Part shown: positions 13,669-63,488 of the stretch, piece by piece
Numbering within the stretch: the stretch's first letter is position 1
Layout: each line of letters starts with the position of its first letter
Virus record (IMG/VR): IMGVR_UViG_3300010369_000001
Reading direction: 5' to 3' (one strand)
DNA: 64,000 nucleotides
DNA from: a virus
Lineage: Duplodnaviria > Heunggongvirae > Uroviricota > Caudoviricetes
The notes under the pieces: generated by a model
The model's input: the letters and a program-made list of their open reading frames with translations, nothing else
Told to the model about the DNA's origin: nothing
Database searches by the model: none
Made by a program: the position numbers and the translations under genes

Positions 13669-14637
13669 TTATGGGTTGAGTCCGAGCAAGTCAGTTCGGA
13701 TAACATTACGTTGGTTAACAATCAACATACCGTAATTAGCAAGCGCAACAAACTCGATCATATTGAGCTTGGACTCGATGTACATGGTAAGTTCTTGCAA
13801 ATGGCTGCAACGAATGTAGTATTTCTCGTCGGTGAAGCCCCAGATAGTTCCAGTGGGAACCATGAGAGTATTCATCGTGATATACCATCTCATTCCACCC
13901 CATCCATCTTCTGTAACCCCTTCTTTCAACATCGACTGTGCGATGTCACCGCCAGATTCCTCACGACCAAACTTAGCTGGCTCAAGAGCGGTAATGACGT
14001 TAGTGAGAAGTTGCTTAACTTCAAACCCTCTATCCCCTTGAACTCGAAGCATTTGAGCTTTGATGTTCGGAATAGTTTCTCGGCCGAGACCACCAGTTGA
14101 CTGCACCCACTGAGGAGCATTTGCCCAAACAGGAGTAGAGTTAGGCGCGCCCAAACAAAGTTGGTTAGCATTAAGCCAATCCATGTTCAGAGTAAGTGCC
14201 ATATCTCTTACAATGTTATCCGCAAACAATTTACGAATATCGTAGGAGTAGGTTCTCATTTCGTTCGTATCTTTGAGCATACGAGGAGTGAAGATCTGGT
14301 AGAACTTCATCGCACCTCGCCTACCGGCAAAGATGTAGTTGTGCGGGTTCGCATAAAGTCCAACATTGATAGATGCTGGGCTGTCAACTTCATAATCGAA
14401 GTAGCGAATGTTTTCTTCAGTTTCAAGCTGCGGAATCAGCTGGTCATTCGTAGTCGTCGTCCACGTAAACATGGACAAGGGCATTGCTTTTTCCCTAATA
14501 CGCTCTTTAATGACTTCATTACCAATCTCAGCAGCCTTTTCCCTATCTTCATGCGAAGACGAGGTGGCAAGTTTTACAAAATTTTGAGAAGCAATTTTGT
14601 CCTGCTCTAGTTCTTGTTCGTATGATGTAATACTCAT
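13669..14637 (-). CDS. Major capsid protein (HK97 fold inferred)
   Basis: 322 aa; follows protease, scaffold and decoration genes; E-loop-like and spine-helix (YDIRKLFADNIVRDMALTLNMDW) pattern; C-terminal YGMLIVNQRNVIRTDL; N-terminal KIA/KLA. Confidence 0.8.
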   Translation of the reverse strand: MSITSYEQELEQDKIASQNFVKLATSSSHEDREKAAEIGNEVIKERIREKAMPLSMFTWTTTTNDQLIPQLETEENIRYFDYEVDSPASINVGLYANPHNYIFAGRRGAMKFYQIFTPRMLKDTNEMRTYSYDIRKLFADNIVRDMALTLNMDWLNANQLCLGAPNSTPVWANAPQWVQSTGGLGRETIPNIKAQMLRVQGDRGFEVKQLLTNVITALEPAKFGREESGGDIAQSMLKEGVTEDGWGGMRWYITMNTLMVPTGTIWGFTDEKYYIRCSHLQELTMYIESKLNMIEFVALANYGMLIVNQRNVIRTDLLGLNP

Positions 14638-25730: not shown

Positions 25731-27719
25731 TTACATCATCGGAGGCTGTCCGCCGCCGGCCATTTGCTCTTTAGCCATTTGCTCACCTTCTTGCTTAGCC
25801 TGATAATCCATTTGACGAAGCTCTTCTAGTACCTGAGAATAAATCGTTTCAGGAAGCTCCTTACGCAATTGATTTAGCTTCTGCCGCCGCTGCCCGTGCT
25901 GCTCAGCCATTAAAACTTCTTGAGCTAGTTGATGAGCAATGCCGACTACATCATTCGGTGACATTTTTTCTTCATCACCTGGCATAATCCCCTGAGAAAT
26001 ACTTCCCATCATTCCCATTCCATGAGGACTTAAACCGCCTTCTGGTGGCGGCGCGCCCATACCAGCGCCACCTGGAGGCCCCATTCCCATTGCCGCTTCT
26101 GGCGGCGGAGGCGGCTGCCCTGTAGACTCTGGGTTCGGAGACATCATAATATTCTGCATCATACCCTTCAGCATCCCCTGCTGTTCCAGTTCGCCTTGCA
26201 TTTCCATCAAAGCTTTTTGCTCATCAATAATTCGACCTTGCTCTTCTAACCAATTACGCCCCATACTTTCAAAAGCTGATGACCAGCTCATAGACATTTG
26301 TGCCGCCAACTGAATGTCCATAGTCTGCCTATCGACATCTGCATCTAATTTAAGCGGTAAAAGCCCAAGTTTCACTGGCGACCAACCTAGACGCGGTTGT
26401 AACTTATTTCCTAACCAGAATAAGAAAGTCTCTAGCTCGTTTCTAAACCACTGCCATTTATTTGCAAAAATAGTTAAAGCAAGAGGGGCGCCATCAACAG
26501 CTAACGTGTTGCGATAAAGCTCAGCTGGTACGTCTATTACTGAAAGCAATGTATCTTCAGCTTGCATAATTAGCTCAGTAGGTACCAAATTTTTAGCTTC
26601 ACCGCCGAGTAACTGATACTGCGCAGGGAACGGCAAGAAGGTAATTTGCCCGTGATCTTGCGTCTCCCACATCTGTTTTACTTGATGTAAGTACGGAAGT
26701 AAATCTACTGTCCCTGCCGGGTCAGCAGTAACGCCGTCCGACGCACCAGCTCTAGGAGCTGGAGTAATTAAACGCTTAGGAACTGAATAATCTACGGCAA
26801 TAGCTTCATTTATTTTATAGAGACAAGCTAACTGCCAGATAAGCTGGAAATGCGACAACATTCGCGGAATTCCCCAGCCATAACACAGCACGCCAGAAAG
26901 CGTAGAATCGCGTAAATGAAATAACTCCCCATCATTAAATCGGAAAGTACCCTGCTGACTTATCGCATAAATAAGCTCCATAGGATACGTGAGTAGCGTA
27001 AGCGTTCGTCCTTCTTCTACATTCTTTTTCATCTCCGCATTTGGCCTAAGATGATAAATGCATTTCTTTTTATCAAACGAACCAGCTTCAATGTAGATGT
27101 CTTGTGGGCGCCACGACACTAGCGTAATATCCTGCTTATTCTCAGATGGAATATCCTTTACATAAAAAGCTCCATTATTGTTGCATTTGTTGCACGTTAA
27201 GTCTCCCAGCATTGGAAGAGCGCCATCTCTTCCCTGTTTAAGAGATTTAATCGCATACTTAAACTGAAACTTTTTCTGATTATCTAAAACATATTTAAAA
27301 CTGTAATGTTCTTTACAGCGCGGACAAATAACAGTTCGTGTGAACGGAAAATATAGCGATCTAAAAGCGTTGCCATAACAAAGCAAATCACAACCTAATG
27401 TAAATAGCTCTTTATTGCCCCCCAAAATAGGAAGAAGGTCTCGTTCGATTGCGTTCTTTGACGTTAAGTCTAAGCGTCCCTTTTTTTCAACATCGGCATA
27501 AGTTAGCTGCGTAAGGTTTAATGCAATAGCTGATTTAATCGCACTGGAATATGCCGGGGCTGAGCAAGTCCAAAGAAATTCAATATAAGCAAGACAAGTA
27601 CGCCAAAAGTCCGGCGTGGCAGCTGTACCCATTGTAGAGAATGGATACATCAGCATTTTCTTGCTGTGATTTACTTGCTTAAACGAAGATAAGGCGTCAT
27701 TTATCCCAAAATAACTCAT
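25731..27719 (-). CDS. Portal protein (putative) with Zn-finger insertion and Met/Pro/Gln-rich tail
   Basis: DLLCYGNAFRS, LFHLRDSTLSG..GWGIPR (portal-like GxP motif), CPRC/CNKC; size and location fit. Confidence 0.7.
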   Translation of the reverse strand: MSYFGINDALSSFKQVNHSKKMLMYPFSTMGTAATPDFWRTCLAYIEFLWTCSAPAYSSAIKSAIALNLTQLTYADVEKKGRLDLTSKNAIERDLLPILGGNKELFTLGCDLLCYGNAFRSLYFPFTRTVICPRCKEHYSFKYVLDNQKKFQFKYAIKSLKQGRDGALPMLGDLTCNKCNNNGAFYVKDIPSENKQDITLVSWRPQDIYIEAGSFDKKKCIYHLRPNAEMKKNVEEGRTLTLLTYPMELIYAISQQGTFRFNDGELFHLRDSTLSGVLCYGWGIPRMLSHFQLIWQLACLYKINEAIAVDYSVPKRLITPAPRAGASDGVTADPAGTVDLLPYLHQVKQMWETQDHGQITFLPFPAQYQLLGGEAKNLVPTELIMQAEDTLLSVIDVPAELYRNTLAVDGAPLALTIFANKWQWFRNELETFLFWLGNKLQPRLGWSPVKLGLLPLKLDADVDRQTMDIQLAAQMSMSWSSAFESMGRNWLEEQGRIIDEQKALMEMQGELEQQGMLKGMMQNIMMSPNPESTGQPPPPPEAAMGMGPPGGAGMGAPPPEGGLSPHGMGMMGSISQGIMPGDEEKMSPNDVVGIAHQLAQEVLMAEQHGQRRQKLNQLRKELPETIYSQVLEELRQMDYQAKQEGEQMAKEQMAGGGQPPMM

Positions 27720-32011: not shown

Positions 32012-32924
32012 TAGTTTGTTTTAATCCGTCCTCCAAAGAAACAACTGGCTGCCAGCCTAATTTCTCTTTAGCTAACATAATATCAGGGCAGCGTCTGGAA
32101 CAATCGCCACTAGGTAGCTCTTTATACTCAAATACTGGATCGGCTATATCAAGTAACTGTGCCATTGTTTTAATACAGCTTTTTATTGAAATTTCATTAG
32201 GGTTGCCAATATTGATCGGGCCAGCTTCATCCCTGGACATCATCTCAACCAAGCCCGTAACCATATCAGAAACATAACAGAATGATCGCGTATGCTCGCC
32301 ATCACCGTATATCGTCACTGGTTTATCCTGTAACAGCTGATTAATAACATTAGGCATCAACCTGCCGTCGTCTGACTGCATACGCGACCCATATACATTG
32401 AAAATACGAACAATCTTTGTATTTAAATTATATTTCCTACGATACTCAGCAACCAACGCCTCAGCTACTCTCTTGCCCTCCGAATAACATGCCCTAGAAC
32501 TTTGTGTATCCGTATTCCCTAAATCTGTTTCTTTCTGAGGATGAGAAAGTGCCTCGCCATATACTTCACTGGTACTGGCGTGCAAGAATTTAGCCCCTGC
32601 TGTCCTAGCTAAGTCCAGGATATTCAACGTACCCATAAATGAAGCTTTTAATGTCTCAATAGGGTTTTCTGTAAAAGCTTTTGGACTGGCCGGGCAAGCT
32701 AAATTATAAATTTCATCAATACCGCCCATTACATGAAACGGTTCCGTAATATCGTGCTTAATAAACGAAAAATTATCACCCTCGGTCATAAGATGAGAAA
32801 TATTTCTCCTGCTGCCCGTACTGAAATTATCTATGCAAACTACTTTGTGCCCCTGACTAATAAGAAACTCACAAAGATGCGAGCCTATAAAACCAGCTCC
32901 TCCTGTTACTACTATTCTTTTCAT
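31980..32924 (-). CDS. uxs: UDP-glucuronate decarboxylase (UDP-xylose synthase), SDR family
   Basis: TGGAGFIGSHL, IYNLACPASP, ASTSEVYG, RACYSEGKR, RIFNVYG, DDGR, TRSFCYVSD. Confidence 0.9.
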   Translation of the reverse strand: MKRIVVTGGAGFIGSHLCEFLISQGHKVVCIDNFSTGSRRNISHLMTEGDNFSFIKHDITEPFHVMGGIDEIYNLACPASPKAFTENPIETLKASFMGTLNILDLARTAGAKFLHASTSEVYGEALSHPQKETDLGNTDTQSSRACYSEGKRVAEALVAEYRRKYNLNTKIVRIFNVYGSRMQSDDGRLMPNVINQLLQDKPVTIYGDGEHTRSFCYVSDMVTGLVEMMSRDEAGPINIGNPNEISIKSCIKTMAQLLDIADPVFEYKELPSGDCSRRCPDIMLAKEKLGWQPVVSLEDGLKQTIDYFKECAKV

Positions 32925-33901
32925 TATTTACATTTACTTAAAAGTTCAGCTAACTGCTCGGCATACGGAATCATACGCTCATCAACAATATAGCGCTCAT
33001 CGTCTGAAACTATCCACTCGTCAGCTTTCCAACCATATTTAACTGTTTCTCGTCCTTGAAGCCTAGCTCCTTCTTCAATAATGTCTCTTTCCACTTTCCA
33101 CTTCTTATGTCGCTTGGCAAAGTCCTCCATTGAGCCGTAAAGATAATGACACAGTGCTACATTGTTATTATCTATAAAAGCTTCTTGCAAGGCCATACGA
33201 TCAAAAGCACCGCCAAGCGCCACTTCTTGTCCGGCAAAATTAACTGTCTTACCATATACCTCAGCTGCATGGCTATAATACCACTTCACTGTCTCGCAGG
33301 GGCGACTGCCGCCATCAGTTCGACCATCTACTTTAATTTGATCCACCCTAACAATGGGCTTGACGGTACTCCACCCGTCTGATGTTTTACGCTTTGTAAA
33401 CCATTTAAGTCTCGTTTCAGTTCGTGGCGCAGTCATAATTTGATTATTATGCCCGTACACCAACCAAGGCACAACAACTTGATCTACGCCCGGCCGGTCG
33501 ACAGCTCTCAACATATCATTAACTGGGCGCATGTGAGAATCATATAAATATTCATCATCATCGAAGAAGGCCAGCCATTCAACACGTCCTTTATAGAACT
33601 CATACATTTTCATATATGCGCGCTGTTGATAACCTATACCAGGATGATACCCGTAATTATTTATTACATCTACAACTTCTCGTACCTCAGGAGCAAGTCG
33701 CTCAATAGCGTTATACGTATCATCAGTACACCGATCTAAGCAAACTATAATGCGGTCAAATCCAGAAAGATAATTATGACACAACATTTCTTGGATGTAC
33801 TGGTCGGCGTTACAAACACACATGCCGACAGCTGAATAATATTTTTTTGTGATACTGTTACTCATTGTTTTATAAAGGAGTTTTTTGCTCTGCAGGAGCA
33901 T
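32924..33901 (-). CDS. Glycosyltransferase (GT2/GT92-like)
   Basis: YIQEMLCHNYLSGFD, LDRCTD, WLAFFDDDEYL, LCHY; true start probably MSNSIT. Confidence 0.8.
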   Translation of the reverse strand: MLLQSKKLLYKTMSNSITKKYYSAVGMCVCNADQYIQEMLCHNYLSGFDRIIVCLDRCTDDTYNAIERLAPEVREVVDVINNYGYHPGIGYQQRAYMKMYEFYKGRVEWLAFFDDDEYLYDSHMRPVNDMLRAVDRPGVDQVVVPWLVYGHNNQIMTAPRTETRLKWFTKRKTSDGWSTVKPIVRVDQIKVDGRTDGGSRPCETVKWYYSHAAEVYGKTVNFAGQEVALGGAFDRMALQEAFIDNNNVALCHYLYGSMEDFAKRHKKWKVERDIIEEGARLQGRETVKYGWKADEWIVSDDERYIVDERMIPYAEQLAELLSKCK

Positions 33902-35879
33902 ATTGTTTTACTGCTGGACATAGCTTACAAATTGCCCGCGCTTTAGTGCATGAAAGGAATTGTACTAGCTCACTTCTTGTACTGCTTGGCAATAACGGCA
34001 AATAGTCCGCCGCAGCTCGCCATAACTCTCCCAACTGCCCAGTTAAATAGCCGTGCTGATATAACGCCGCCTGCGGACACATATATAAACAGCCATTTAA
34101 TAATGTCACACAGTTCCTTTGTGTTGAGCATTCATGGTAGCTAGTCTCTGCGCAATCGGAGAACATAGGGACTGGTAGTTGATTTTCTATTTCGTAATAC
34201 TTCTGAAAAGAATTAAAATAATTACGAACCTCAACCAGCAACTGATTAGCTTTCCAAAAAGCAACCTGCTCATCTATTTTTTTATTTAGTGGCTCCTGGT
34301 CAAAATGCTTTGAAACACGAATAAAAGTATTTGTTTCAAATATCGCCTGAAGCGTGTCTTTGTCTTCCATCGGAACTAAACCATTAGTTACAATGACTCG
34401 TGCTGAACTAGGGAACGTATCATGCACAATTCGCACAATTTGAGCTAAATTTGGATGTAGTGTAGGCTCGCCACCTAAAATACGAACTTGATGAGGCAGC
34501 AACCGCCCTTTCCACGCATTACACCACTCATACGCCTCCTCCACCGTAATCATTCCTTTTAAGAACTGCCCTAAATGCGCACAGTAATTACATTTTAGAT
34601 TGCACGAATAGCAAATATTTAGCTCAAGAGCGGGAAATTCGACTGGAATATTTTCTCGTTTTGTTTCATCCTCTTCCCACCATTTCTTCTCATACATCAT
34701 CTCCCAATGCCCGCGACTAGCTGGTCTTGAAGCATGTAATATTGGGGCAGAACAAATTGCATTATTGGTTGTCGGCTCCTCATGCATTTTTGAGTCTGGC
34801 GGGAAATTAAGAATAAATGCAGAGAAAATACGGTTAGAATCTAGCTGATACCATTCTGGATGTTCAAGGGCGTTCAAAAAATGTAGCGCCTGATCATCAT
34901 TCTCGATATTAAACTTAGGCTGGCTAGGAACATAATTTTCTATTAAGTATTTAGCTACGGGCAGCTGTAAATTGCCGTCTAGGTATTGTTGACGTAATTT
35001 GAATATATTTTCATAGACCGTAATTAAATCATCGACGTGTCCGGCAATTACGCCAGTATTTAGCTCGCATCTATCCCCAAGAATTTTTTGAAATTCATAA
35101 TAAAGGCGCGAATGGTCATACACAAAATAAGGGTGAATGATGCCTGGCGAATCTGTAGAAATTAAAATACGTCCGTCATATAGGGCATTAAACTTACCTA
35201 AAATAATATCTACTGGCTGCCTAAAAATAATATCTCGCGTATCTATAGAAACAAGATATTCAATTCCTTTCTTCTTATATTCAAGGCACTGCTCGTAAAA
35301 GTGTTTGATTTTATGCTCGTAAAAAGTTGTGTACTCCGCCTTATAGTCATAAAAAGCATAAGGAATACCTTGCTCAGCTGCGCTCTTACTAAACAGCGCA
35401 ACACTTGTTGTCGTTTTACTGCCAAACGCTGCAGCACCTAAAAAAAGTGTATTTGCGCGTGTCGCGTATAATTCCCCAGGAGTAAATGCCCACACAACAT
35501 TGCCGCTAGGAGCTGGGCCGCCAGAATTAAAATAACGTACCGGAGAGACTACTACACACCTAAATACATACGACCCCGCCGGTAAGACAATCTCAGGAAT
35601 TAACTGCCCAGGCTTAGCTGACTCGCCGACCGCTACATCATCAATATAAAATCTAACAATGGCATTTTTTGAGTACTTTAAAGCAGACGGCGCCAGCCCA
35701 CACGCAAAACGGGTCGCTTCTTCAAGATTTACACGAAATATACATTCATGCCCAAATGAGCTCCAGCCGTCCCACACTATCTTTGCCCAATCGCGATGCT
35801 CCGTTAGTAAAAAAATATCATAATCTGGTTCCTTTAACTCTCCAGCAACCTTAATCGGTACAATACTACTTTGCGACAT
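33870..35879 (-). CDS. Three-domain fusion: beta domain + PLOD-type glycosyltransferase + radical SAM
   Basis: SIDTRDIIF, LNTGVIAG, DDQAL, PILHAS; then CNLKCNYCAH, GGEPTLHP, TNG, CKLC. Confidence 0.85.
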   Translation of the reverse strand: MSQSSIVPIKVAGELKEPDYDIFLLTEHRDWAKIVWDGWSSFGHECIFRVNLEEATRFACGLAPSALKYSKNAIVRFYIDDVAVGESAKPGQLIPEIVLPAGSYVFRCVVVSPVRYFNSGGPAPSGNVVWAFTPGELYATRANTLFLGAAAFGSKTTTSVALFSKSAAEQGIPYAFYDYKAEYTTFYEHKIKHFYEQCLEYKKKGIEYLVSIDTRDIIFRQPVDIILGKFNALYDGRILISTDSPGIIHPYFVYDHSRLYYEFQKILGDRCELNTGVIAGHVDDLITVYENIFKLRQQYLDGNLQLPVAKYLIENYVPSQPKFNIENDDQALHFLNALEHPEWYQLDSNRIFSAFILNFPPDSKMHEEPTTNNAICSAPILHASRPASRGHWEMMYEKKWWEEDETKRENIPVEFPALELNICYSCNLKCNYCAHLGQFLKGMITVEEAYEWCNAWKGRLLPHQVRILGGEPTLHPNLAQIVRIVHDTFPSSARVIVTNGLVPMEDKDTLQAIFETNTFIRVSKHFDQEPLNKKIDEQVAFWKANQLLVEVRNYFNSFQKYYEIENQLPVPMFSDCAETSYHECSTQRNCVTLLNGCLYMCPQAALYQHGYLTGQLGELWRAAADYLPLLPSSTRSELVQFLSCTKARAICKLCPAVKQYAPAEQKTPL

Positions 35880-43944: not shown

Positions 43945-43951
43945 AGCTCTA

Positions 43952-44269
43952 TTATACTACGACATACCCTTGTTTAACAATTTCCTTATATCTCCTATGG
44001 GCAGCAGCATAAGCTTCAAGATCGACATCTGGTACTTGATTTAAGTTACCGTTTCTGCCTATTTCCTTAGCTCGTTTATTTATGGCTTTTTCAAGAGCTA
44101 AAGTCTCGTTTATATCTCTAACTATGTTATCCGCCATTATTTGCCGAAGATCATATTTATAGACTTCGTGAGTTGCTTCAGCCGTAGCTGCGCTCTTGCC
44201 AACAGTACCAGCTCCTAAAGCAGCTATTAAAGTTCCAACACTCAATTTAAGAAATTCACGTCTCTTCAT
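43952..44269 (-). CDS. Twin-arginine (Tat) signal protein containing a major-capsid-like segment
   Basis: MKRREFLK + hydrophobic h-region + AEA cleavage site; YKYDLRQIMADNIVRDINETL matches MCP; TATAAT-N7-ATG. Confidence 0.75.
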   Translation of the reverse strand: MKRREFLKLSVGTLIAALGAGTVGKSAATAEATHEVYKYDLRQIMADNIVRDINETLALEKAINKRAKEIGRNGNLNQVPDVDLEAYAAAHRRYKEIVKQGYVVV

Positions 44270-44283
44270 ATTAACTATTATAT

Positions 44284-44535: not shown

Positions 44536-44828
44536 AATTTACCCTCCACAAGCTGCTTTAGCTTAAATTCAGCTTCCTTTTTGGTCTTAGCCCACCGACA
44601 ACTACTAAATAAACAATATTTCCCTAAGCTAGCTTCATCATAGCCAGAAATATCGTCATATTTAACTAACACACATTTCTGTATCTTGTCCTCATTTAAA
44701 GACAGCTTAGTCATCTTTACTTTAACAACTTTCTTGATGGCATCTAAAACAACCCAGCCGTCAAAGAACTGCTTATCCTCTAAACCGCCCCAAAGCCAAA
44801 TTGGGTATGCATAATAATCTACTGACAT
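44532..44828 (-). CDS. Hypothetical protein
   Basis: C-terminal KTKKEAEFKL common in small phage proteins; coupled ORF. Confidence 0.55.
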   Translation of the reverse strand: MSVDYYAYPIWLWGGLEDKQFFDGWVVLDAIKKVVKVKMTKLSLNEDKIQKCVLVKYDDISGYDEASLGKYCLFSSCRWAKTKKEAEFKLKQLVEGKL

Positions 44829-45745
44829 ATTCTTTTAAGTTCTTGTTGAAGAATTTTACTACAAATACGCTCTAACGTTAAATACTTCTCACAAAATTGT
44901 TTCATTCGCCGCCGCCAAGCAAAACATTCCTCTTCAGAAATAGATGTGACAATTTTAGGTATTTCAGCTAGCTTATCGGGCGTAACCACTATAACTAAGT
45001 TTTTCCAATCAACCTCGTCTTCGTACGGAAAAATAGGTTGGTCAGTAATATAGATCGGGATTGTCCCGGCAGCTAAAGCTTCGTATATTCTATAAGTAGT
45101 TGGGCCGCAGCCTCTTGGGCACAAGGCAAAAGAAGCATTTCGCAATTCCTCTAAATAATCCGTGTACCTTAATTTCTCAGTCCATTTAACAAAGTCACAA
45201 CATTTACTGAACTCATTGCTTTTTAGTCGTACCCAATGCGGGCTCTCGCCGCCAAGACAATAAAGAATTAACGTTCGCTTAATATCGCTTAAACTGGCCA
45301 TCTGATAATGTCGCAGCTCTCTTACATGTACTAGCGGTATTATACTATGTTCTGGCGTATGATCTACATCACAACTGTTATAGCCGCCGCCGCAGTAAAG
45401 AAAGAAATTTTTTGGATGCTTAATAAACGGCGATTGATCCATATTCCTTGTTACAGCCGAGCTAAAGTAATTAAAAGCATCACTGCAGCTGTCAAAAATT
45501 TCTTGCAATTGCTCAAAATAAATTTTACTAATTGCGGAAGTATGGTGGCGCAGCTCCCAGGCCTGAGACCATTGAATAGGTAAATAAACTGACTTTAACT
45601 CAGCTCCTTCCTTGATGCGCTGAATAATATGCGCTGTATAGTCCATAGGGAAAATACCTGGACGAATATTTATACGATTAAATTCATCCAGCCTCTCTTT
45701 ACACAACTCAAAAATACGTTCTTGTTCTTTTTGTATTTCAGTCAT
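44819..45745 (-). CDS. Exostosin-family glycosyltransferase (GT47-like)
   Basis: FALCPRGCGPTTYRIYEALAAGTIPIYI, PYEDEVDW. Confidence 0.9.
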   Translation of the reverse strand: MTEIQKEQERIFELCKERLDEFNRINIRPGIFPMDYTAHIIQRIKEGAELKSVYLPIQWSQAWELRHHTSAISKIYFEQLQEIFDSCSDAFNYFSSAVTRNMDQSPFIKHPKNFFLYCGGGYNSCDVDHTPEHSIIPLVHVRELRHYQMASLSDIKRTLILYCLGGESPHWVRLKSNEFSKCCDFVKWTEKLRYTDYLEELRNASFALCPRGCGPTTYRIYEALAAGTIPIYITDQPIFPYEDEVDWKNLVIVVTPDKLAEIPKIVTSISEEECFAWRRRMKQFCEKYLTLERICSKILQQELKRICQ

Positions 45746-47933: not shown

Positions 47934-48713
47934 TTACCCATAAATACCTGCCTGCCTATCCCTAATTAACTGATGCAGCTGAGGATATTTTGCCTCTAGC
48001 GCCCTCAAAGCTCGTCTATTGCCGCCGCCTCTAAAATTGTCAAACATTAATGTACTATCACCTGCATGCTTAAACTCAAATATATTTGACCACAATTTAC
48101 TCGCCCCCGCTAAGAAATGTTTTGTACCTTTCAATACCGCCATAGCCCAAAACCACATATCGTCAGCTGTAGGCGCAATTTCCTTAAAAAGCTGGCTATT
48201 AGCTACATCAGCATAAAAGGAATTAGGCGGATACAAAATCATCCCAACACCTAGCGGAAAGGCAGCTGGATATATTCCTTTTCCAAGTATGGACTGCCAC
48301 TCTCGATACAGCTTAAATTGAGTATCAGCCTCAAATTCTATTTGTCGCATGCATGTGCCGACTATGCAAGCTGGATTTTCAGCACTATGTTTAACTAAGT
48401 GCTCGACACTATCAAGAGCATAAAAACAATCATCATCCGCTGTAATAATCGTATCATCGGGAAACTCCTGTAAAGCCCAAACTAGCTTTGAATACGACTT
48501 AATTGGTTCATACCCTTCTCTAATTTCAAGACCAGCTATATTTTTTAACTCAGCTGTTGCAGCATCATTTGTGTCTAAATAAAGAATTACTTTGTCAGCT
48601 TTATGCGTTTGATTAAGCAAGCTATAAATCGCATGCGGGGCCGATTCAGCTAATCTGCGACCATGACTTGTTAAAGAAATTATTAATTTACCACTCATAA
48701 AAAAATTGCTCAA
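47934..48713 (-). CDS. Glycosyltransferase (GT-A, 'ISLTS' GT2/GT64-like)
   Basis: IISLTSHGRRL, IITADDDCFY, GVGMILYPP, PTADDMWF. Confidence 0.85.
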   Translation of the reverse strand: MSNFFMSGKLIISLTSHGRRLAESAPHAIYSLLNQTHKADKVILYLDTNDAATAELKNIAGLEIREGYEPIKSYSKLVWALQEFPDDTIITADDDCFYALDSVEHLVKHSAENPACIVGTCMRQIEFEADTQFKLYREWQSILGKGIYPAAFPLGVGMILYPPNSFYADVANSQLFKEIAPTADDMWFWAMAVLKGTKHFLAGASKLWSNIFEFKHAGDSTLMFDNFRGGGNRRALRALEAKYPQLHQLIRDRQAGIYG

Positions 48714-49395
48714 AATCGTCTCGATTTATTTGCTCAATAGCTTTTCTCGAAGTTTCATTCAATATATCCCTATAAGATAATTGCTTACTAAATGTAGTAA
48801 AAATACGCTCAGTAACTTTGGTTATTATAGGGAAGCTAGAGCGTAGCTTATTAATCCGCTCGGACACCTGCCTAATAATAAGGTCTAATCCTTCTTCAAA
48901 TCTAAATATTTCAATTGACGGGTCAATTTTATTGTCTGCCCACAAATACCCACACATGGGCTGCGTCACATACGGCCACGCACCGCGACCGCCTTCATAC
49001 AGTAAAAATTCATTTATATTCTTAAAGGGCTTATTTTTGCGTAAATCAACTGCCCAACCTTCCTTAAACTCGCTATTAGGGTCAGCCATTTTTTCAAAAT
49101 GATAATAGCTAGAGAGGGTTTTACTAAATGGATTGCGGACAATTGCAAATTTATAGTATGTGTCCCAAATTTCTGGCCCAAGCAATTGTTGCAGTTCATG
49201 TGCCTTGGCGTGCTTTAGCCCAAAGTGCAAGCCGTCAGCTAACCTACCGCGCGGCCCTTCAGCTGATGGAGTGCGCCCAAAGGGGCAGGATAAAGACAGC
49301 ACACCATCCATTGTACTAAATTGTTTCTCAATACTTGTCCCACCTGTCTTAGGCAAATGAATAAATAGAAATTTATATTTATGCGAAATTATCAT
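48688..49395 (-). CDS. Sulfotransferase family 2
   Basis: FIHLPKTGGTS (5'-PSB), FAIVRNPF..LSSY (3'-PB), DFEQFFY. Confidence 0.9.
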   Translation of the reverse strand: MIISHKYKFLFIHLPKTGGTSIEKQFSTMDGVLSLSCPFGRTPSAEGPRGRLADGLHFGLKHAKAHELQQLLGPEIWDTYYKFAIVRNPFSKTLSSYYHFEKMADPNSEFKEGWAVDLRKNKPFKNINEFLLYEGGRGAWPYVTQPMCGYLWADNKIDPSIEIFRFEEGLDLIIRQVSERINKLRSSFPIITKVTERIFTTFSKQLSYRDILNETSRKAIEQINRDDFEQFFYEW

Positions 49396-50204
49396 AATGG
49401 CTTACTTAAATGATTACTTATTTGCGCCCAATAAGCTGGCGGCGCCTGTGACTGCTCCATATACTCTAAATAAGTCTCACAAAGATTGCACTCAGCAAAA
49501 GGATAGAGATGTAAATATTCTCTAACGGCGGTGAGATTTGCAGAAGATAAATCAAGCCCAGCAAATGGCGCTAACTTCTTGTAATAATCGTCATGTATTG
49601 GAGTTCCGTCTTTTTTACCATAATGAAGAAACAGCATCCTAGCTGCATGTCTGGGACAGCGATAAAGCTTACCTTTGTGTACTACTTTATTATGGCGTGG
49701 CGGACAATTTACCGAAAAATCCCTCTCTTCAGATAAAGAGATTAAAGGCATGTCAGCAAATCTCTTTTCTACATAATCGTACTTAAAGCCTTCAGCAGTT
49801 AGCCAATCTCGCATATTAACTAAATTCCGGTCATAGCCTCGGCCATGTGGCGTAATTATAAGATAGAACAATGGATATTTCTCATATAACTCAGCTATCC
49901 GATCTTTGAAAAGAAATAGCTGAGTTCCATTAGTAGCGATGCTTATTTGCGTATTTATGGAGAAATAGTCATAAATACTTTCAACGGCCTCAAATATTTT
50001 GTCATGTAAAAATGGCTCGCCGCCATTTAAGCGCACTTCATCTGGAACTAAAAAATTAGAAGCTAGCTGAAGGTCATCCGATATTTCCTGTAACGGCAGC
50101 TCCCAATCCTGTAAAGGACTGAAATGAGCGCAGCCACGACAGCTCAAATTACATTTACTTGTAATTTGTAGCTCCAGTCTAGCTATTCTGACTAATTTAT
50201 TCAT
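49392..50204 (-). CDS. Radical SAM protein
   Basis: CNLSCRGCAHFSP, GGEPFLH, TNG, KLYRC, CNLC. Confidence 0.9.
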   Translation of the reverse strand: MNKLVRIARLELQITSKCNLSCRGCAHFSPLQDWELPLQEISDDLQLASNFLVPDEVRLNGGEPFLHDKIFEAVESIYDYFSINTQISIATNGTQLFLFKDRIAELYEKYPLFYLIITPHGRGYDRNLVNMRDWLTAEGFKYDYVEKRFADMPLISLSEERDFSVNCPPRHNKVVHKGKLYRCPRHAARMLFLHYGKKDGTPIHDDYYKKLAPFAGLDLSSANLTAVREYLHLYPFAECNLCETYLEYMEQSQAPPAYWAQISNHLSKPL

Positions 50205-50433
50205 AAGGTTTAATTTTGCCAGGCTTTAAATTTAAGAGTCCTTTTTGTTCTTCGATAAGTCGCCGCTGCTCTTTCAAGTAGTTCCTGCCACTTAGTACAG
50301 GACATATTTCGGGCTCACTAACACGCTGTTCAAGTAAGACAAGCCGATCTGTTAAATCTAACAAAGCTACCGCCTGAGCATTTTGTACTCGTACAATCTC
50401 AATTAATTTAGCTGTCAATTCCCAATCGTTCAT
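50197..50433 (-). CDS. Small coiled-coil hypothetical protein
   Basis: TAAAAT-N7-ATG; LTDRLVLLEQRV. Confidence 0.55.
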   Translation of the reverse strand: MNDWELTAKLIEIVRVQNAQAVALLDLTDRLVLLEQRVSEPEICPVLSGRNYLKEQRRLIEEQKGLLNLKPGKIKPYE

Positions 50434-50470
50434 ATGTTGTATTTTACCGTATCTTAGCTAGACTTTAACT

Positions 50471-50782
50471 ATGGCGGTTAATCTTAAATACAACATCAGA
50501 AAGCTGAAGTGTATTTTGCATTTAGGGCGGGCATGCTGGAACTGCGGATATAATCGTTGCCTTGATGCTTTAGACTTTCATCATCTGCCCGAATATGAAA
50601 AGTTGTATGACATTAGCTGGGGCATTAAACGTTATCCTTTTGAACACGTAATGGTCGAGCTAGAGAAATGCGCCCTTTTGTGCGCTAACTGCCATAGAGA
50701 AACACACGCTAATTTAGGAAAATGGCAGCTGAGGGATATTGATAAAGACGAGCTATTTGAGAAGTACGGAGCTGAGTTTTAA
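50471..50782 (+). CDS. HNH endonuclease
   Basis: CWNCGY...LDFHH...KCALLCANCHRETH; TAGACT-N6-ATG. Confidence 0.88.
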   Translation: MAVNLKYNIRKLKCILHLGRACWNCGYNRCLDALDFHHLPEYEKLYDISWGIKRYPFEHVMVELEKCALLCANCHRETHANLGKWQLRDIDKDELFEKYGAEF

Positions 50783-51807
50783 GTCTCGCGCGAGAAAACA
50801 TCATTTTCTAACGCCCATTGATATGTCTTTCTTATTCCTTCCCGAATTTGTGTCATCTTAGCTGGGCGCTCAATAATACTGAAAAGCCTGCTATCGTCTA
50901 ATTCACGTAAAGGCGCACCATCAGGCTTAATATTGTCATAAGTCATTAAACCTTTATAGCCAATTACTTCAGCTATAGTCTGAGCTAAATTGTGAATAGA
51001 CAGCTTAATTGATCCGCCTATATTGTAAATACATCTTGTTCCTCGTGCCCAAGTATAATTTTTAAGCATTGGAACTTCCATAAGTCGGACAGCAATATCG
51101 GCTAAATCGTCAACATATAGAAATTCTCGAACAGCTTTACCGCTTCCCCACAGAGAAACAACATCTGCATTCGACAATTTAGCTCGGTGAAACTTCCTAA
51201 TTAAAGCTGGAAGTACGTGACTACTTTGTGGATCAAAATTGTCGTTAGGCCCATAAAGATTACAAGGTACAAGAGTATAGTATTGCGTGTCATATTGTTT
51301 GTTATACATCTGACACATTTTAGCTGCCGTGACTTTAGCTACCGCATAACCCTCATTAGTAGGTTCAAAAAGACCATTACAAATTGATTCTTCTTTTATT
51401 GGAGTCGGTGCTTCTCTAGGATACATACAAACACTGCCTAGATTAAGTAGTTTCTTTACTCCGTATTTATGCGCCGCATGAATTATATTTGCAGAAATCA
51501 TGAGATTGTCGTACAAGAATTCAGCTTGCGCATTGTTGTTAGCTAGAATACCACCTACTTTAGCCGCACAATTAAAAACAACATCCGGACGGATGTTATT
51601 GATTATGTAACAAGCTAAATCCTTTTCCCTCAAGTCATGTACACGACTGTTCTCTTCTGGAAAAAGTTTCGGCTGCTTTTCTAAATATGAACTCCAAGTT
51701 CTTTCCGTAAAAACATTCTCATAACCTTTTTCCTTAAGATTGCGGATAATAGCTGAACCAACCAACCCTGTGTGCCCAGCTACGTAAATTCGATCTTTTT
51801 TATTCAT
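50779..51807 (-). CDS. fcl: GDP-L-fucose synthase
   Basis: IYVAGHTGLVGSAI, AAKVGGILAN, LGSVCMYP, EPTNEGYAVAK, NLYGPNDNF, SHVLPALIRK, REFLYVDDLA. Confidence 0.93.
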   Translation of the reverse strand: MNKKDRIYVAGHTGLVGSAIIRNLKEKGYENVFTERTWSSYLEKQPKLFPEENSRVHDLREKDLACYIINNIRPDVVFNCAAKVGGILANNNAQAEFLYDNLMISANIIHAAHKYGVKKLLNLGSVCMYPREAPTPIKEESICNGLFEPTNEGYAVAKVTAAKMCQMYNKQYDTQYYTLVPCNLYGPNDNFDPQSSHVLPALIRKFHRAKLSNADVVSLWGSGKAVREFLYVDDLADIAVRLMEVPMLKNYTWARGTRCIYNIGGSIKLSIHNLAQTIAEVIGYKGLMTYDNIKPDGAPLRELDDSRLFSIIERPAKMTQIREGIRKTYQWALENDVFSRET

Positions 51808-51843
51808 AAAATGATTATAACTAAAAATTCAAAATCTTCAACT

Positions 51844-52524
51844 TTACCACTCATAACCTAAAAGCTCAAAATCTCTTTTATAAAACACTTCAATTACGTC
51901 ACGAGCCTCACAATTAATTACTTCACGATAATTACGCCGACACTGACGCGCCTTAGTGTTAACTTGTTGCGATAACACACTAATAATAGGAAATTCTTTA
52001 TCTTTTTTTTGGATATTTTTACTTATCGTTGTTACCGCATTATTCAACCCATCTTCAAATTTAAATATTTCACAATCAATTCTATCGTCGACATATATAT
52101 ATTCTATTTGTGAACGAAGTGCTTCATCTTTAAGTTTTAAAAATTTTTCAGTTAAAAGCCTAATAATCCATGAATTTAAATCAAGAATATCCTTACCATT
52201 AAGCATCATTAGTTTAACTAACCAAGGTTCACTACAATAGCCACACATGGCCCTAAAAAACCAATACATACTTATAATGCGATCAAATGGATTACGTACT
52301 ATACTAAAACGATAATAAGAATTATAAATTTCATTACCCCACAACCATTTAATAAAATTTAAGTCAGCATGTTTATAGACAGCTATAGACGGTTTATCAA
52401 AAAAATTAAACACTTCGCCAGATAATACGCATGCTTCACAAATATTAAATTCAGCTTCAATACTAGTGCCAGCTGTCTTAGGAATATGAACAAAAATATA
52501 TTTAGACTTATGCGAAATTATCAT
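51844..52524 (-). CDS. Sulfotransferase family 2
   Basis: FVHIPKTAGTS, FSIVRNPFDRIISMY, DFELLGY. Confidence 0.9.
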   Translation of the reverse strand: MIISHKSKYIFVHIPKTAGTSIEAEFNICEACVLSGEVFNFFDKPSIAVYKHADLNFIKWLWGNEIYNSYYRFSIVRNPFDRIISMYWFFRAMCGYCSEPWLVKLMMLNGKDILDLNSWIIRLLTEKFLKLKDEALRSQIEYIYVDDRIDCEIFKFEDGLNNAVTTISKNIQKKDKEFPIISVLSQQVNTKARQCRRNYREVINCEARDVIEVFYKRDFELLGYEW

Positions 52525-53453
52525 ATTTTAACTTTCTCTAATATAGCTCTAACAGCATTATGATAAACCAACATACTATAATCATCTTCCTTACTCTGAT
52601 TATCTAGTCCTTTAAAATAATCTACATTGTGCTCTATGCCATTAAAACGATTTTTACATCTACTATGACGCATAACCCAGTCTTCTAAACTACCAGTGAT
52701 ATAATGCGCTATATTTGACGACTGACTCAACGATATGAAACTTGTTTTATTGTAATGAAGCTGCTCAATATTTTTCCAATCTTGAAGAGGCTTATCTGAA
52801 ATTAATAAACCATTTGCATCACGTGTACATCCATCAATCGTTTTGCAAAAATGAATAAAACACCAACGATCATTTTTAACAAGCCTATCTACTTTAATAA
52901 TAGATTTAAATTGAGCTGGTTTTAGCATATAGCTATTAATCAAAGGCATTCGTTTTGTTAATGCCGACAATCGTGTATTAGGTAATTTAATTGTCCTAAC
53001 ATTATTATTAGATCCATAAATTTTCCACCAAAACAATATCTGACTTGTATCTAAAGCAAAAGTATCAATAATATCATTAATTTTACGTTGCTTAAAATCA
53101 TAAAATAATTCATCGACATCCCAAATAGCCAACCACTCAACTTCTTTACTAACCAAATCATAAATCAAATTATAGGCTTTTTCTTGAAAATCCCAACCAG
53201 GATTGTTATTAACATAAGGCAATATCACTACCTTATCTAAGACAAACTGTGGTAAATTCATTATTTTATTAAACGTATTATCTATTTCGCCATCAATTTT
53301 ATGCAATACAACTAGTATCTTATCAAAACCTATTAAATAATGATGAACAATCCATTCTTGAATATACGCTTCTTCTAATCTAGCTACACAACCAATAGCT
53401 GACTTATAACGTTTTTTACACATTGCTTTATTACAGACTAGCGACTCGATCAC
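52521..53453 (-). CDS. Glycosyltransferase (GT2/GT92-like), paralogue of 32924..33901
   Basis: YIQEWIVHHYLIGFD, WLAIWDVDEL, FKSII, IAHY.TGSLED. Confidence 0.82.
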   Translation of the reverse strand: MIESLVCNKAMCKKRYKSAIGCVARLEEAYIQEWIVHHYLIGFDKILVVLHKIDGEIDNTFNKIMNLPQFVLDKVVILPYVNNNPGWDFQEKAYNLIYDLVSKEVEWLAIWDVDELFYDFKQRKINDIIDTFALDTSQILFWWKIYGSNNNVRTIKLPNTRLSALTKRMPLINSYMLKPAQFKSIIKVDRLVKNDRWCFIHFCKTIDGCTRDANGLLISDKPLQDWKNIEQLHYNKTSFISLSQSSNIAHYITGSLEDWVMRHSRCKNRFNGIEHNVDYFKGLDNQSKEDDYSMLVYHNAVRAILEKVKI

Positions 53454-54207
53454 GTTGTTGATAAAAGTATTTATTAGAATTATTAAAACAATGCATACAT
53501 AAAACCATCTTACCTTGATAATCTTTAATAAGCTTACTAACCTCTAAATACCAATCTTTTTTCACTGGTACACTGAGTATTTGAAAAATATCCGGATAAG
53601 GTAAGTTACATAACTTAAAAGCATCGTGGCCAGGTGCTCCGCAAATGCTTATACGATTATCCGTAAAAGTCAATCCGCACATACATTTACAAGGAATAGA
53701 ATAAGTCTCATCAATTGACGCTATTCTACGCCCAAAATAATGTCTTTCAAAAATTCTAACTTTATTATGTGTCAATAATTCTCTTATATGTATTTTTTTT
53801 TCATCATCTAAAAACTCATACAAACTAATACTAGTTTTATCAACATAATTTAAAACAGTAGTCAATAACGCAGTATCTTGTAAAAATAAAAGACCATTTG
53901 TAACTAAATTAATGCATTTGGCTATTTTACTTTGATGTAATAAAGGTAAACCCTCTAATAAATTTTCCCAACATAATGGTTCACCAATCGCATTAATGTT
54001 TAAAGTCTCTATAATGTAATCAGAATCATGACAGCTAATTATGAATTTTTCTAAAGCAGAAATACTCAAATGCCACTGAGCATACTCAGTACGACAAGCT
54101 AAATGAGCACAATTTTTACAATTTAAATTACACTTACCCACCACTGACATATTTAATTCAGGTATTAACATAATTAAATCCCTCCACTGTCTTAATAAAC
54201 CGCGCAT
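53431..54207 (-). CDS. Radical SAM protein (true start probably MLIPEL)
   Basis: CNLNCKNCAH, GEPL, TNG, CKCMC, CMHC. Confidence 0.85.
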   Translation of the reverse strand: MRGLLRQWRDLIMLIPELNMSVVGKCNLNCKNCAHLACRTEYAQWHLSISALEKFIISCHDSDYIIETLNINAIGEPLCWENLLEGLPLLHQSKIAKCINLVTNGLLFLQDTALLTTVLNYVDKTSISLYEFLDDEKKIHIRELLTHNKVRIFERHYFGRRIASIDETYSIPCKCMCGLTFTDNRISICGAPGHDAFKLCNLPYPDIFQILSVPVKKDWYLEVSKLIKDYQGKMVLCMHCFNNSNKYFYQQRDRVASL

Positions 54208-54874
54208 CAGTGATTAAAGACTGACCGACATCTTGTCCACAAAAAGAATTATTACTTATAAAAATTTTTAAATTATTTTCTCTACACCAAGGAAAAATTA
54301 AACAATCTATAGCCGGTAAACGGCCATCTGAAGAAACCCATTTACAATTATTCGTATGTGCGTCATAAAAAATTTTATTTGATTTAATATCATTAATTAA
54401 TTTAGCTCGCCATTCACCAGCTTGAAAACAAACGCACTGAAATCCGTGTATGTAATCAACCGTTCCAACTAAATCTGTTAACTTTAAATAACTCTCTGGC
54501 TCCTTTGAATATGGCCAACCAGTATGACCTGCCATTAATATTTTCCAATCAAATGGTAGCTGATTAATATGTGCTTCTAATACTGACTGAAAATCCCACC
54601 TAAAATAGGCATCATCTTCAAAAAAACATAAAATATCTTTTTCAGATAATGCCGTCTCAAGTAAATTTGCCACACTTATTGCATGATCGTAATACTGAGT
54701 ACGATAAAACTTGAGATCCTTAGGTATTAAACTTCTTTTTTCAACATACCACATGAAAAAAGAATAATTATCTATGCCAGCAACTTTACACATATTAGCT
54801 ATACGTCTTCGACGTTCTGCACTTATAGTGCACCCCTCTGAACCACAGCTAAGTATTTTATAGTTAAAGACCAT
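54158..54874 (-). CDS. GT25-like glycosyltransferase
   Basis: FFEDDAYF, LPFDWKILMAG, HGFQCV, AID, GQ. Confidence 0.75.
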   Translation of the reverse strand: MVFNYKILSCGSEGCTISAERRRRIANMCKVAGIDNYSFFMWYVEKRSLIPKDLKFYRTQYYDHAISVANLLETALSEKDILCFFEDDAYFRWDFQSVLEAHINQLPFDWKILMAGHTGWPYSKEPESYLKLTDLVGTVDYIHGFQCVCFQAGEWRAKLINDIKSNKIFYDAHTNNCKWVSSDGRLPAIDCLIFPWCRENNLKIFISNNSFCGQDVGQSLITDARFIKTVEGFNYVNT

Positions 54875-54875
54875 A

Positions 54876-55631
54876 TCAAAAATTATCCCCTAAAACATCA
54901 CTAAGCACTTGCCTAGCATATCCGCCTTTAAAATCTCTATTTTCGGGAGCTAAATGAAATAAACCTGGAAAATGATAAAATATTGCTTTTCCATTATCTA
55001 CATTAGGCTGACAGCTGGTAAAAATCTGCTTATTTTTATCCAAAGAAATATCTAACCAAAACTTTTCATTTGCCTGTTCATATAAATATTTTTCATAAAA
55101 AAGCTTTTGCAACATATACTGATCTTCCGGAAATTGATCATCAGAAGAAATATAATTATGCAAGTGCTCTAATAACCTTATCACATCTAAACGATTACCG
55201 CCATAGGCTCCGCTATTAGGTGAAAAAATTAAATTAGAGTTCTTATCCTTAAAACATCGTATAAAATCTTCACTATTACGCGGCCATAATGGCGCTTCAG
55301 CAGTTAAAGCTAAATAGGGTACTTTTGCATACTCTGTGGAGACTATTACACCATTATCAGGAAGTCGTGCCTCAAATACAGATGAATCTGCACAGATAAA
55401 TGTGTCCGAATAATCCGCTAGAATTACTTTCTTATGTGGTAAAATATTCAAATATTTTAGCCCAATACGCAGCTTATCTAACCATTTTGCCCTACCAAGC
55501 TCAGGTCTAAACCTTTCACCAGCTCCTGCAAAAACTAACGGAACTTTAAAATAATCACATGTTTTTTTTAATAAACTATCCGGAACATTAGGATAAATAC
55601 TAAAAGCTACTATCGCAAAATTTTCAGACAT
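54876..55631 (-). CDS. PLOD/LH3-type glycosyltransferase
   Basis: LADYSDTF, PNSGAYGG, EDQYML, FYHFPG. Confidence 0.75.
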   Translation of the reverse strand: MSENFAIVAFSIYPNVPDSLLKKTCDYFKVPLVFAGAGERFRPELGRAKWLDKLRIGLKYLNILPHKKVILADYSDTFICADSSVFEARLPDNGVIVSTEYAKVPYLALTAEAPLWPRNSEDFIRCFKDKNSNLIFSPNSGAYGGNRLDVIRLLEHLHNYISSDDQFPEDQYMLQKLFYEKYLYEQANEKFWLDISLDKNKQIFTSCQPNVDNGKAIFYHFPGLFHLAPENRDFKGGYARQVLSDVLGDNF

Positions 55632-56403
55632 CTTTACATAACTGATCTACCAGCTTAAAGTAAGCTTCTGTAAGAGGCTGACCAGGAAAATGGATTATCG
55701 GGCTTATATTAGTTAACCCTGTTTCTAATATACGAGCTGACATTAATTGTCCCGTTCTATCTACCTGTATCAAAGGTATGCCACATGCTTGTAAAATATG
55801 AATACAAAATTGATCATCCCAACGTTTTTGCTGCTTTAACGCATAATTAAAAGCATACAGACTAGCTATATCATTTTTTGTTAAATTATTAAAATGACCA
55901 CAATTCCTTTTTTGATCAAGGCATTCAAATACAAATAAAATATGCTGACATAGCTTAATAATTAAATTTATTTGCCCAGCAAAAACACCGGCATTTAAAA
56001 CCACCAACTCCTGATCTTTAGCTACTTTATCTCTAAACCATTTTTCATTATAAGGATAAAGCACATCGGCCCATCCTTTATTAAATAATACACACTTTAA
56101 ATCTAACGTATTATATATTCTTAAAAGTTCACAAACTGGCGCAGTAAATAATACATCACGCGAATCAAAGAAAAACAGGTGCTCTACTCCCTGTTGTAAT
56201 AATTTTTTTGCACCCGCTAATAATGGATTAATTTTTAAAGCTATATAATCATGAACATTTAACGCATTAGTCTCTTCCCAATACAACCAATAAAGCGGTA
56301 CTCCAAAGTACTTAGCTGTCTTACGAATACCATACGTATATTCCTGTAAACCTGTATTAACAGCTGTGCTGCAAAATCTTGTATTTTCTAACGTAGCTAA
56401 CAT
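55624..56403 (-). CDS. PLOD/LH3-type glycosyltransferase
   Basis: FFDSRDVLF, LNAGVFAG, DDQF, IIHFPG. Confidence 0.75.
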   Translation of the reverse strand: MLATLENTRFCSTAVNTGLQEYTYGIRKTAKYFGVPLYWLYWEETNALNVHDYIALKINPLLAGAKKLLQQGVEHLFFFDSRDVLFTAPVCELLRIYNTLDLKCVLFNKGWADVLYPYNEKWFRDKVAKDQELVVLNAGVFAGQINLIIKLCQHILFVFECLDQKRNCGHFNNLTKNDIASLYAFNYALKQQKRWDDQFCIHILQACGIPLIQVDRTGQLMSARILETGLTNISPIIHFPGQPLTEAYFKLVDQLCKDV

Positions 56404-57023
56404 GTGGAAATAAGGAACCTATTTTGCTCTTCAGCCGTATATGCTTCTAAACTATCATATAAAATAGTAGACTGCATTTTACCTGTTTGAATACTAGGAC
56501 TTCCGCCCTGTCCTACATAACTTTTTTGTGGACAAAATATTTTTAAATGTTGCACTTCTGGGTCATGATAAAACATACAATCAAGTCCGCCAGGAGAATT
56601 ATAGATTGCTGCACTTAATTCCATATATGAAAAATTATTACGATATGCAATACACTGTGTACCATGAAATTCAGCTAATTGCCTATAATTATTTACTTCT
56701 TTTTTTACTTGAAATATTTGAGTATACCCTGGAATAAAAATTTCCCATTCCTCAGGTAAATTGGCTAAATCTTTTTCAAATCTTTTAACAAAATCTGGAA
56801 AGACTATAGCATCATCCTCAAAACATAATAAATTACCAGTATAAGTACGCAAAATTTTTGCAAAATGTTTAGTGCCACCTAAAGGAGGATCTACAGCAAC
56901 AACACTAATACTATATTCACCAATATTGCTTCTTTTAAAATATTGACGTAATCTTGCAATACGTTCTGTACTTATTTTATGATCAGTTGACAAAATAACA
57001 ATTTTAAAATCAGCTAAGTTCAT
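56397..57023 (-). CDS. GT25-like glycosyltransferase
   Basis: HFAKI, CFEDDA, LPEEWEI, HGTQCI, GLD, VGQ. Confidence 0.75.
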   Translation of the reverse strand: MNLADFKIVILSTDHKISTERIARLRQYFKRSNIGEYSISVVAVDPPLGGTKHFAKILRTYTGNLLCFEDDAIVFPDFVKRFEKDLANLPEEWEIFIPGYTQIFQVKKEVNNYRQLAEFHGTQCIAYRNNFSYMELSAAIYNSPGGLDCMFYHDPEVQHLKIFCPQKSYVGQGGSPSIQTGKMQSTILYDSLEAYTAEEQNRFLISTC

Positions 57024-61385: not shown

Positions 61386-61396
61386 AATTTAAATCC

Positions 61397-62065: not shown

Positions 62066-62068
62066 ATT

Positions 62069-62278: not shown

Positions 62279-62379
62279 TTCTTTTTCTTAACTATCTCAA
62301 ATCCCTCTGGAACCCAAAACTCAGCTCTACATAATTAATTTCTTCTGTCATGTTTTTTTAAATTGTTTTCGTAGTTTAC

Positions 62380-63444: not shown

Positions 63445-63488
63445 CTTGTTCTTTGTTTGAGGTTTTCCTCCAGTATAACAAATCTCGG

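Follow-up and report, generated by a model that had tools for sequence, protein, structure and literature searches.

Introduction

Terminase and prohead protease act as immune triggers, and the Lit/Gol peptide belongs to a capsid-sensing defence. The major capsid protein (MCP) and the portal are likewise known triggers, as set out in the available parts of three reports, one or more of which describe single MCP substitutions that allow escape from CapRel (PMC13581612, PMC11578894, PMC13728456). Recognition can involve a large surface: Avs7 reads the MCP as one complete fold, over 3,700 square angstrom (PMC13581612). For Bodo saltans virus, fusions that carry fragments of viral genes are proposed by the authors to be decoys for host antiviral factors (PMC5871332, in the part available). 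It is also established, in the accessible part of PMC10924467, that the twin-arginine translocation (Tat) system can carry an untagged partner in a folded complex that bears the signal on one partner only, the hitchhiker route.

Here we analyse a phage mini-gene in which a predicted Tat leader is closely followed by an excerpt homologous to the MCP. It lies in a stretch of 64,000 nucleotides, referred to throughout as the window, the whole of which was analysed.

The phage and its genomic context

The phage is uncultured and large (longest contig 225 kb), and the sequencing runs with matching sequence are labelled termite gut metagenome. In the contigs of all four runs checked, from which the window itself may derive, the stretch is present in one piece with no joint, and no sequence variants of the mini-gene were found there. 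One close relative of the MCP is labelled Planctomycetaceae, and 5 of the 11 genome contigs with an MCP of the family are binned in Planctomycetota or Verrucomicrobiota. Radical-SAM enzymes, glycosyltransferase-like enzymes (GT47 by Pfam) and further paralogous enzymes of modification form a long series at positions 30452-35879, 44819-45745 and 47934-63920, and perhaps serve virion or surface glycan decoration.

The window has few Shine-Dalgarno motifs and a TA[TAC]AAT hexamer 6-8 nt before ATG, which makes leaderless expression likely. Relatives of the phage encode an RNA polymerase subunit. The pattern TA[TAC]AAT-N6-8-ATG is found upstream of 14 of the 75 listed window genes, including the mini-gene, the portal, a protease-like gene and a second gene that carries a fragment.

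Anatomy of the mini-gene

The mini-gene is an ORF of 105 residues on the minus strand at 43952..44269, with the position and sequence originally reported for it. It consists of a Tat-type leader, an excerpt of the MCP spine helix and a tail of unassigned origin. The predicted twin-arginine leader covers residues 1-32 (44174..44269, minus strand), with RRxFLK, an h-region at 9-24, Lys25, and AxA at 28-30 and 30-32. The copy of MCP residues 130-150, comprising a loop and the first half of the spine helix, forms residues 37-57 (44099..44161, minus strand); it begins 4-6 residues past the predicted cleavage, and is thus as close behind the leader as first proposed. The tail of 48 residues (58-105, at 43955..44098, minus strand) is matched neither elsewhere in the window nor in any of 223 retrieved loci.

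A TATAAT hexamer (44277..44282, minus strand) stands 7 nt before the ATG and likely marks a leaderless start. The preliminary description regarded this element as the gene's own promoter. The TATAAT-N7-ATG arrangement is indeed present, but a promoter scan gives no good -35 and the pattern is a common one in this phage. Since it also precedes 13 other listed genes, the mini-gene looks like a normal gene of the phage. Another TATAAT (43951..43956, minus strand), which belongs to the next gene (227-aa core), overlaps the stop codon of the mini-gene. The mini-gene lies about 30 kb away from the head genes, as had been pointed out, and its neighbours are small accessory genes.

The leader has been compared with what is expected of a Tat signal. 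Residues 3-7 are RREFL, which agrees with the minimal motif of two arginines, any residue and two hydrophobic residues (as given in the accessible part of PMC10924467). The h-region is rich in Gly and Ala and of moderate hydrophobicity (hydropathy 1.88 over 13 residues, 1.51 over 19), the c-region contains a Lys, and there are two possible cleavage sites, ATA at 28-30 and AEA at 30-32. Against TIGR01409 the leader scores 14.9 bits, below the cut-off of 16.7, and PF10518 is not among the matches at E<=0.1. Judged by its sequence features, the leader thus has a Tat-type build, as initially suggested, though it scores below the curated cut-off. It is worth adding that TIGR01409 found nothing above cut-off in 50 relative records and missed the first Tat gene of relative G037 as well; the leader of the G037 fusion described below has no NCBIfam match at E<=0.5.

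The donor is the major capsid protein

The donor gene (13669..14637, minus strand) encodes a protein of 322 residues, which has no Pfam, PHROG or NCBIfam match. Its identity as the MCP, taken for granted in the preliminary description, is borne out by structure prediction, by Foldseek and by a family profile. An AlphaFold2 model built with 150 sequences reaches a pLDDT of 90 (an earlier model with 21 sequences had 38) and places a helix at residues 134-162. Foldseek returns HK97, T5, SaPI1 and other capsids at the top, with E about 1e-9; there are 361 PDB matches at E<=0.001, and the top matches listed are capsids and one encapsulin, which identifies the HK97 fold, with its E-loop, spine helix, P domain and A domain. 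With the family profile, the protein annotated as MCP in Salmonella phage Arash is matched at 2.8e-67. There are 24 close relatives of the MCP, and 568 at E<=0.001. Cultured phages of 180-187 kb carry a distant member of the family, namely Salmonella phage Arash (OQ632216.1), in which no second MCP match was found, and Vibrio phages D69, D148 and D181. These would provide a bench system for the MCP family.

When mapped on the model, the donor segment (residues 130-150, at 14188..14250, minus strand) is a loop and the first half of the predicted spine helix. It is among the conserved parts of the MCP, with D133, R135, D140, N141 and D145 present at 65-95% in 150 sequences, and it ranks 32 of 302 segments. 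A putative scaffold gene (16373-17470) is assigned by position only.

The excerpt is homologous to the MCP

The excerpt and the donor segment are identical at 13 of 21 residues, with a BLASTP pair E of 4e-7. By tblastn against the whole window the excerpt gives E 3e-5, and it occurs in the window as a single copy. The Smith-Waterman score of the mini-gene with the MCP is 72, and that of the next best window protein is 43. A score of 72 was matched by none of 2000 pair shuffles and none of 7668 shuffled all-vs-all pairs, the latter from a set of 72 proteins of which 2 are plus-strand ORFs read in the wrong strand. It was matched by none of 300 proteome-wide shuffles either, and the match originally noticed therefore stands at the level of the whole proteome.

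It could be argued that the similarity arose by chance or convergence, as the match is short and reaches 17-18 bits on the MCP family HMM. Against this, in addition to the shuffles, the mini-gene is the only fragment match among 13,198 ORFs (121 loci and the window), and a reciprocal profile made from three mini-proteins (see below) recovers MCP genes. Chance is already largely refuted by these results, and we consider it scarcely credible. The mini-gene is not itself a full-length HK97-fold MCP: only profile positions 124-143 of 312 match.

The DNA was also reported to be nearly identical over a core of 21/23 nucleotides. The core is present, but it adds no evidence because the protein match alone predicts such a match (P=0.11): when both peptides were randomly recoded in 20,000 runs, the best 23-mer reached at least 21 in 11%, and the total reached at least 40 identities in 45%. 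The observed total is 40/63 nt across the segment. Seven more near-exact direct repeat pairs of 23 nt are found in the window besides the MCP pair (for example near 9880/19790, 48640/57780 and 49360/52490), mostly among paralogous enzymes.

Age and constraint of the excerpt

Identical codons are used at 7 of the 13 shared residues, with 5.9 expected at saturation (P=0.36). The synonymous sites thus look saturated, which implies that the copy is not recent, and the suggestion that the mini-gene is a recent chimera derived from an MCP fragment is not supported.

Within a core of 17 residues the excerpt differs from its own MCP at six sites. All six of the residues found there also occur among more distant family members (K 29, L 51, Q 85, I 42, M 10 and I 41 of 150), and five of the six are found in none of 21 close MCPs. 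Scored with a matrix of 141 distant MCPs, the excerpt does better than its own MCP (42.7 against 37.3 bits), and random substitutions at the same sites reached the score of the excerpt in 11 of 100,000 trials; in a more conservative HMM test over 24 residues, 144 of 20,000 did so. The best single matches of the excerpt are still within the close MCP clade. Family-like substitutions are absent from three MCP fragments of relatives that have no Tat leader (G001a, G066a and G011), in a set where detection by profile is biased towards family-like residues.

These substitutions mean that the excerpt is no recently duplicated, decaying copy of the phage's own MCP gene. The pattern points to an old capture that has been kept MCP-like, or to a capture from an unsampled lineage.

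Recurrence of the design in relatives

Searches with the whole ORF at E<=0.01 recovered only the mini-gene itself among 36 candidates. None were found in viral contigs, and GenBank phages gave one match at E=7. Atlas matches of the whole ORF were all under 0.9, and its structure model is of low confidence. A search for short relatives of the MCP found one C-terminal MCP piece and missed the mini-gene itself (17-18 bits). Exact-motif scans gave no Tat fusions, nor would the two fusions described next match these motifs. The close-clade motif occurred 0 times in viral contigs, 0 times in genomes and 11 times in metagenomes (9 MCP genes, 2 by chance), with termite-clade loci that span only 10 kb from the MCP, and the family motif occurred at 108 viral loci (107 MCP, 1 by chance) and 26 genome loci (11 MCP).

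The records of 100 of the 107 MCP loci with the family motif were searched whole. The same architecture and segment are found in two distant relatives. In G037, a gene of 87 residues pairs an RRxFLK leader with this spine segment, which is identical to the MCP of G037 at 15/28 positions. A gene of 76 residues in G053 combines an RR leader with the start of the spine (score 37) and a piece of the portal (score 73), both pieces being matched by 0/2000 shuffles. Homologue searches with these two fusions found only themselves and one spurious match, and weak segment matches in G013, G015 and G017 were not accepted. The MCPs of the window, G037 and G053 are only 16-33% identical pairwise, and the window and G037 mini-genes show no alignment outside the leader motif and the excerpt, and therefore the captures were likely separate. 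The three separate fusions all begin at the D-x-R motif of the spine. With a profile from the three mini-proteins alone, the MCP gene was recovered in 79 of 80 records, and these 80 gave no additional Tat fusion.

The combination of a Tat leader and an MCP fragment was thus detected in 2 of 80 related records, or 2 of the 31 that are at least 90% complete. In the 8 fetched records and the window there are four convincing Tat-type small genes, and three of these carry the spine start; the survey began with 19 loose candidates, of which 15 were dismissed by eye as not Tat-like.

This distribution bears on two further explanations. The preliminary description raised the possibility of a membrane-tethered nucleator of the phage's own procapsid, which would agree with an excerpt that tracks its own MCP and with a start motif common to head genes. 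The rarity of the gene disfavours this idea, as does its location, 30 kb away from the head genes in a neighbourhood of small accessory genes, and we regard a nucleator as very improbable. Alternatively, the mini-gene could be a neutral or short-lived chimera without selected function, possibly a recent capture from the MCP of an unsampled relative. No homologue of the whole ORF turned up in 5.8 billion proteins (E<=0.01), IMG/VR or GenBank phages, and G011 holds a fresh, 92% identical copy of another MCP segment, which indicates that fragment capture is ongoing. However, the ORF is intact, with its start motif and a complete leader, the design is repeated in relatives, and five of the six core substitutions are family-typical while missing from the close MCPs. 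A neutral origin is accordingly rated as improbable, though less so than a nucleator.

Capsid and portal genes as donors

Pieces of MCP without a leader occur in seven genes (two in G001, which are also in G073, one each in G011, G053 and G067, and two in G066), and stem from several parts of the MCP. Most MCP fragments therefore have no Tat leader, and fragment capture also happens outside the Tat design. When seven MCPs were tested, 8 of 9 fragments scored best with that of their own phage.

In 69 relative records, at E<=0.01, there are six detached MCP fragments in five records and five detached portal fragments, from several portal positions and each confirmed individually, in five records. 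None were found there for terminase, protease-like and sheath-like proteins, or for helicase in small ORFs, using control profiles of only 6-9 sequences each that were built including some of those records; the labels "sheath-like" and "protease-like" come from size, position and motifs, with no Pfam name. If capture is scaled to gene length among the MCP and four controls, the probability that all five records fall on the MCP is about 2e-5, subject to the relatedness of the records and the stronger conservation of the MCP. When 13,089 small ORFs were scanned locally, eight detached fragments were of the MCP, two of the portal and none of the others. Six of the eight records fetched whole were picked for their MCP fragments, and the ranking of donors rests on the 69-record searches. 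Among the genes surveyed, donors are limited to the MCP and the portal.

The window itself contains an example of the latter. The likely portal (25731..27719, minus strand, 662 residues) is assigned by structure and by Atlas neighbours, which are portal families at 0.92-0.94. Its residues 487-508 (26196-26261) are copied in residues 49-70 (50224-50289) of an ORF of 78 residues without Tat leader (50197..50433, minus strand), which has TAAAAT-N7-ATG. The two are identical at 12/22 positions, with a Smith-Waterman score of 69 matched by 0/2000 shuffles. Two differences of this ORF agree with a relative's portal in L007 and not with its own portal.

Other arrangements were noted in relatives. In G067 (C1:110584-111062, minus strand) a portal-fragment gene and, directly after it, an MCP-spine-fragment gene both lack a Tat leader. 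In G014 (C1 about 28900-30330, plus strand, L284) an ORF of 478 residues contains two pieces of its own portal (scores 52 and 114, each 0/1000 shuffles). MCP pieces in G001 (C1:79966-80418 and 96638-97890, plus strand) are fused to members of tandem arrays of small paralogous genes, and a polymerase-family ORF of G037 (C1:184203-187961, plus strand) has a 30-residue stretch that is 23/30 identical to the baseplate-J-like protein of the same phage.

One conceivable role of the mini-gene is interference with assembly. As a copy of the scaffold-binding end of the spine helix, the excerpt would titrate the scaffold or the head subunits that belong to a related, co-infecting phage, and the protein would draw them to the membrane. 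In SPP1 the scaffold touches this helix at its amino end (PMC6813328); it also contacts the spine helix of HK97, and comparable density is seen in P22 and T7 (PMC10275583). The MCP and the portal are the two shell proteins that meet scaffold, and pieces of both occur in one chain in G053 and in two adjacent genes in G067; family-wide residues would also suit a range of rivals. On the other hand, 8 of 9 excerpts score best with the MCP of their own phage, so that assembly of the phage itself would suffer as well; the start motif that the mini-gene has in common with the portal and protease-like genes suggests co-expression with its own head genes; and portal fragments come from several positions. 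We hold this explanation to be unlikely.

An envelope role is another candidate, and to us an equally unlikely one. Here the Tat leader would be the selected part, acting through translocase jamming, superinfection exclusion or lysis timing, and the capsid helix would be merely a stable soluble helix with no capsid-related partner. If fully exported, the excerpt would end up in the periplasm, out of reach of assembly and of sensors in the cytoplasm; a second Tat-type gene in G037 lacks a head excerpt; and the non-Tat chimeras with MCP or portal pieces indicate that these genes are frequent donors. But a mere filler would not be expected to start at the same spine D-x-R motif in three separate fusions, to show family-like substitution in both the window and G037 genes, or to avoid the four control genes.

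Possible function

On the basis of these observations, our tentative preference is that the mini-gene is an optional accessory gene, which provides a bait for a host capsid sensor that is taken out at or across the inner membrane. We consider this possible rather than probable; it stands ahead of scaffold titration and the envelope role, with a neutral chimera, a nucleator and chance following in that order. The mini-gene would be transcribed together with the structural genes by way of the common leaderless-type start. The helix excerpt would then compete with the MCP for a sensor that recognises a short stretch, and Tat would either dock the bait-sensor pair at TatBC or carry it to the periplasm by the hitchhiker route. 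In a host with such a sensor, the phage could thereby evade abortive infection. Movement of folded complexes by that route would explain why the leader is of Tat rather than Sec type. The bait is favoured because a Tat leader would send the excerpt away from sensors and from assembly, unless removal is its purpose. Patchy presence fits an accessory counter-defence gene, and by analogy with known triggers the use of MCP and portal as donors was counted in its favour.

Several observations count against a bait. Recognition of a whole fold, as by Avs7, could hardly be mimicked by a helix of 21 residues; terminase and prohead protease are also triggers, yet no fragments of them were found in the 69 records; and most MCP fragments in relatives are without a Tat leader.

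The interpretation first offered thus holds in part. The MCP homology, the Tat-type leader and the idea of an MCP mimic gain support, the last from recurrence and from the family-allowed residues; recent birth and a nucleator do not. A more general and unlikely extension is that phages repeatedly fuse excerpts of their own immune-triggering shell proteins, the capsid spine helix and the portal, to a Tat leader as "deportation tags", which would haul capsid sensors or rival head proteins out of the cytoplasm. If so, the excerpts would map the epitopes that bacterial sensors read.

Even without a bait, the restriction of donors to capsid and portal and the three Tat fusions at one helix pose a testable question, namely the identity of the protein that, in infected cells, binds the first part of the HK97 spine helix. 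To look for capsid sensors in hosts that have been little studied, the mini-genes can serve directly as probes. We know of no capsid sensor for this phage family.

Comparison with known systems

We found no description of phage Tat-leader genes with capsid or portal excerpts in the literature searched, which covered few subscription papers. If the bait is real, it would represent counter-defence by export of a sensor, as opposed to inhibition or signal sponging, and this too was not found in that literature.

The mini-gene resembles HK97-fold MCPs in its homology to the start of the spine helix, but with only 21 of about 320 residues it cannot form the fold. With Tat signal peptides (TIGR01409, PF10518) it shares RRxFLK, the h-region and an AxA right before the cargo; the cargo is a short capsid excerpt rather than a cofactor enzyme, and the score is below the curated cut-off. 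CapRel SJ46, Avs7/8/10 and Thoeris share with our proposal the MCP and portal as triggers, but are host-side systems.

In Bodo saltans virus, ankyrin-repeat proteins begin with fragments of essential viral genes, and are similar in that small pieces of the virus's own genes are fused to a separate module (PMC5871332), and the mini-gene is likewise a fragment of an essential gene joined to another module. In contrast, the mini-gene has no Pfam match, ankyrin repeats included, and is a single copy in the window with no tandem amplification. The virus is a eukaryotic giant virus, its fragments are of catalytic enzymes, and its module is ankyrin where here it is an export leader; the decoy role is a proposal there as well. 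Finally, DSAD1 is cytoplasmic and has no export leader, the available part of its account does not describe it as a copy of the trigger, and its function is shown whereas that of the mini-gene is predicted (PMC11087589). It is nevertheless a small phage protein and an inhibitor that competes with a structural trigger for DSR2, the tail-tube sensor of the host, as the mini-gene would do for a sensor of the capsid.
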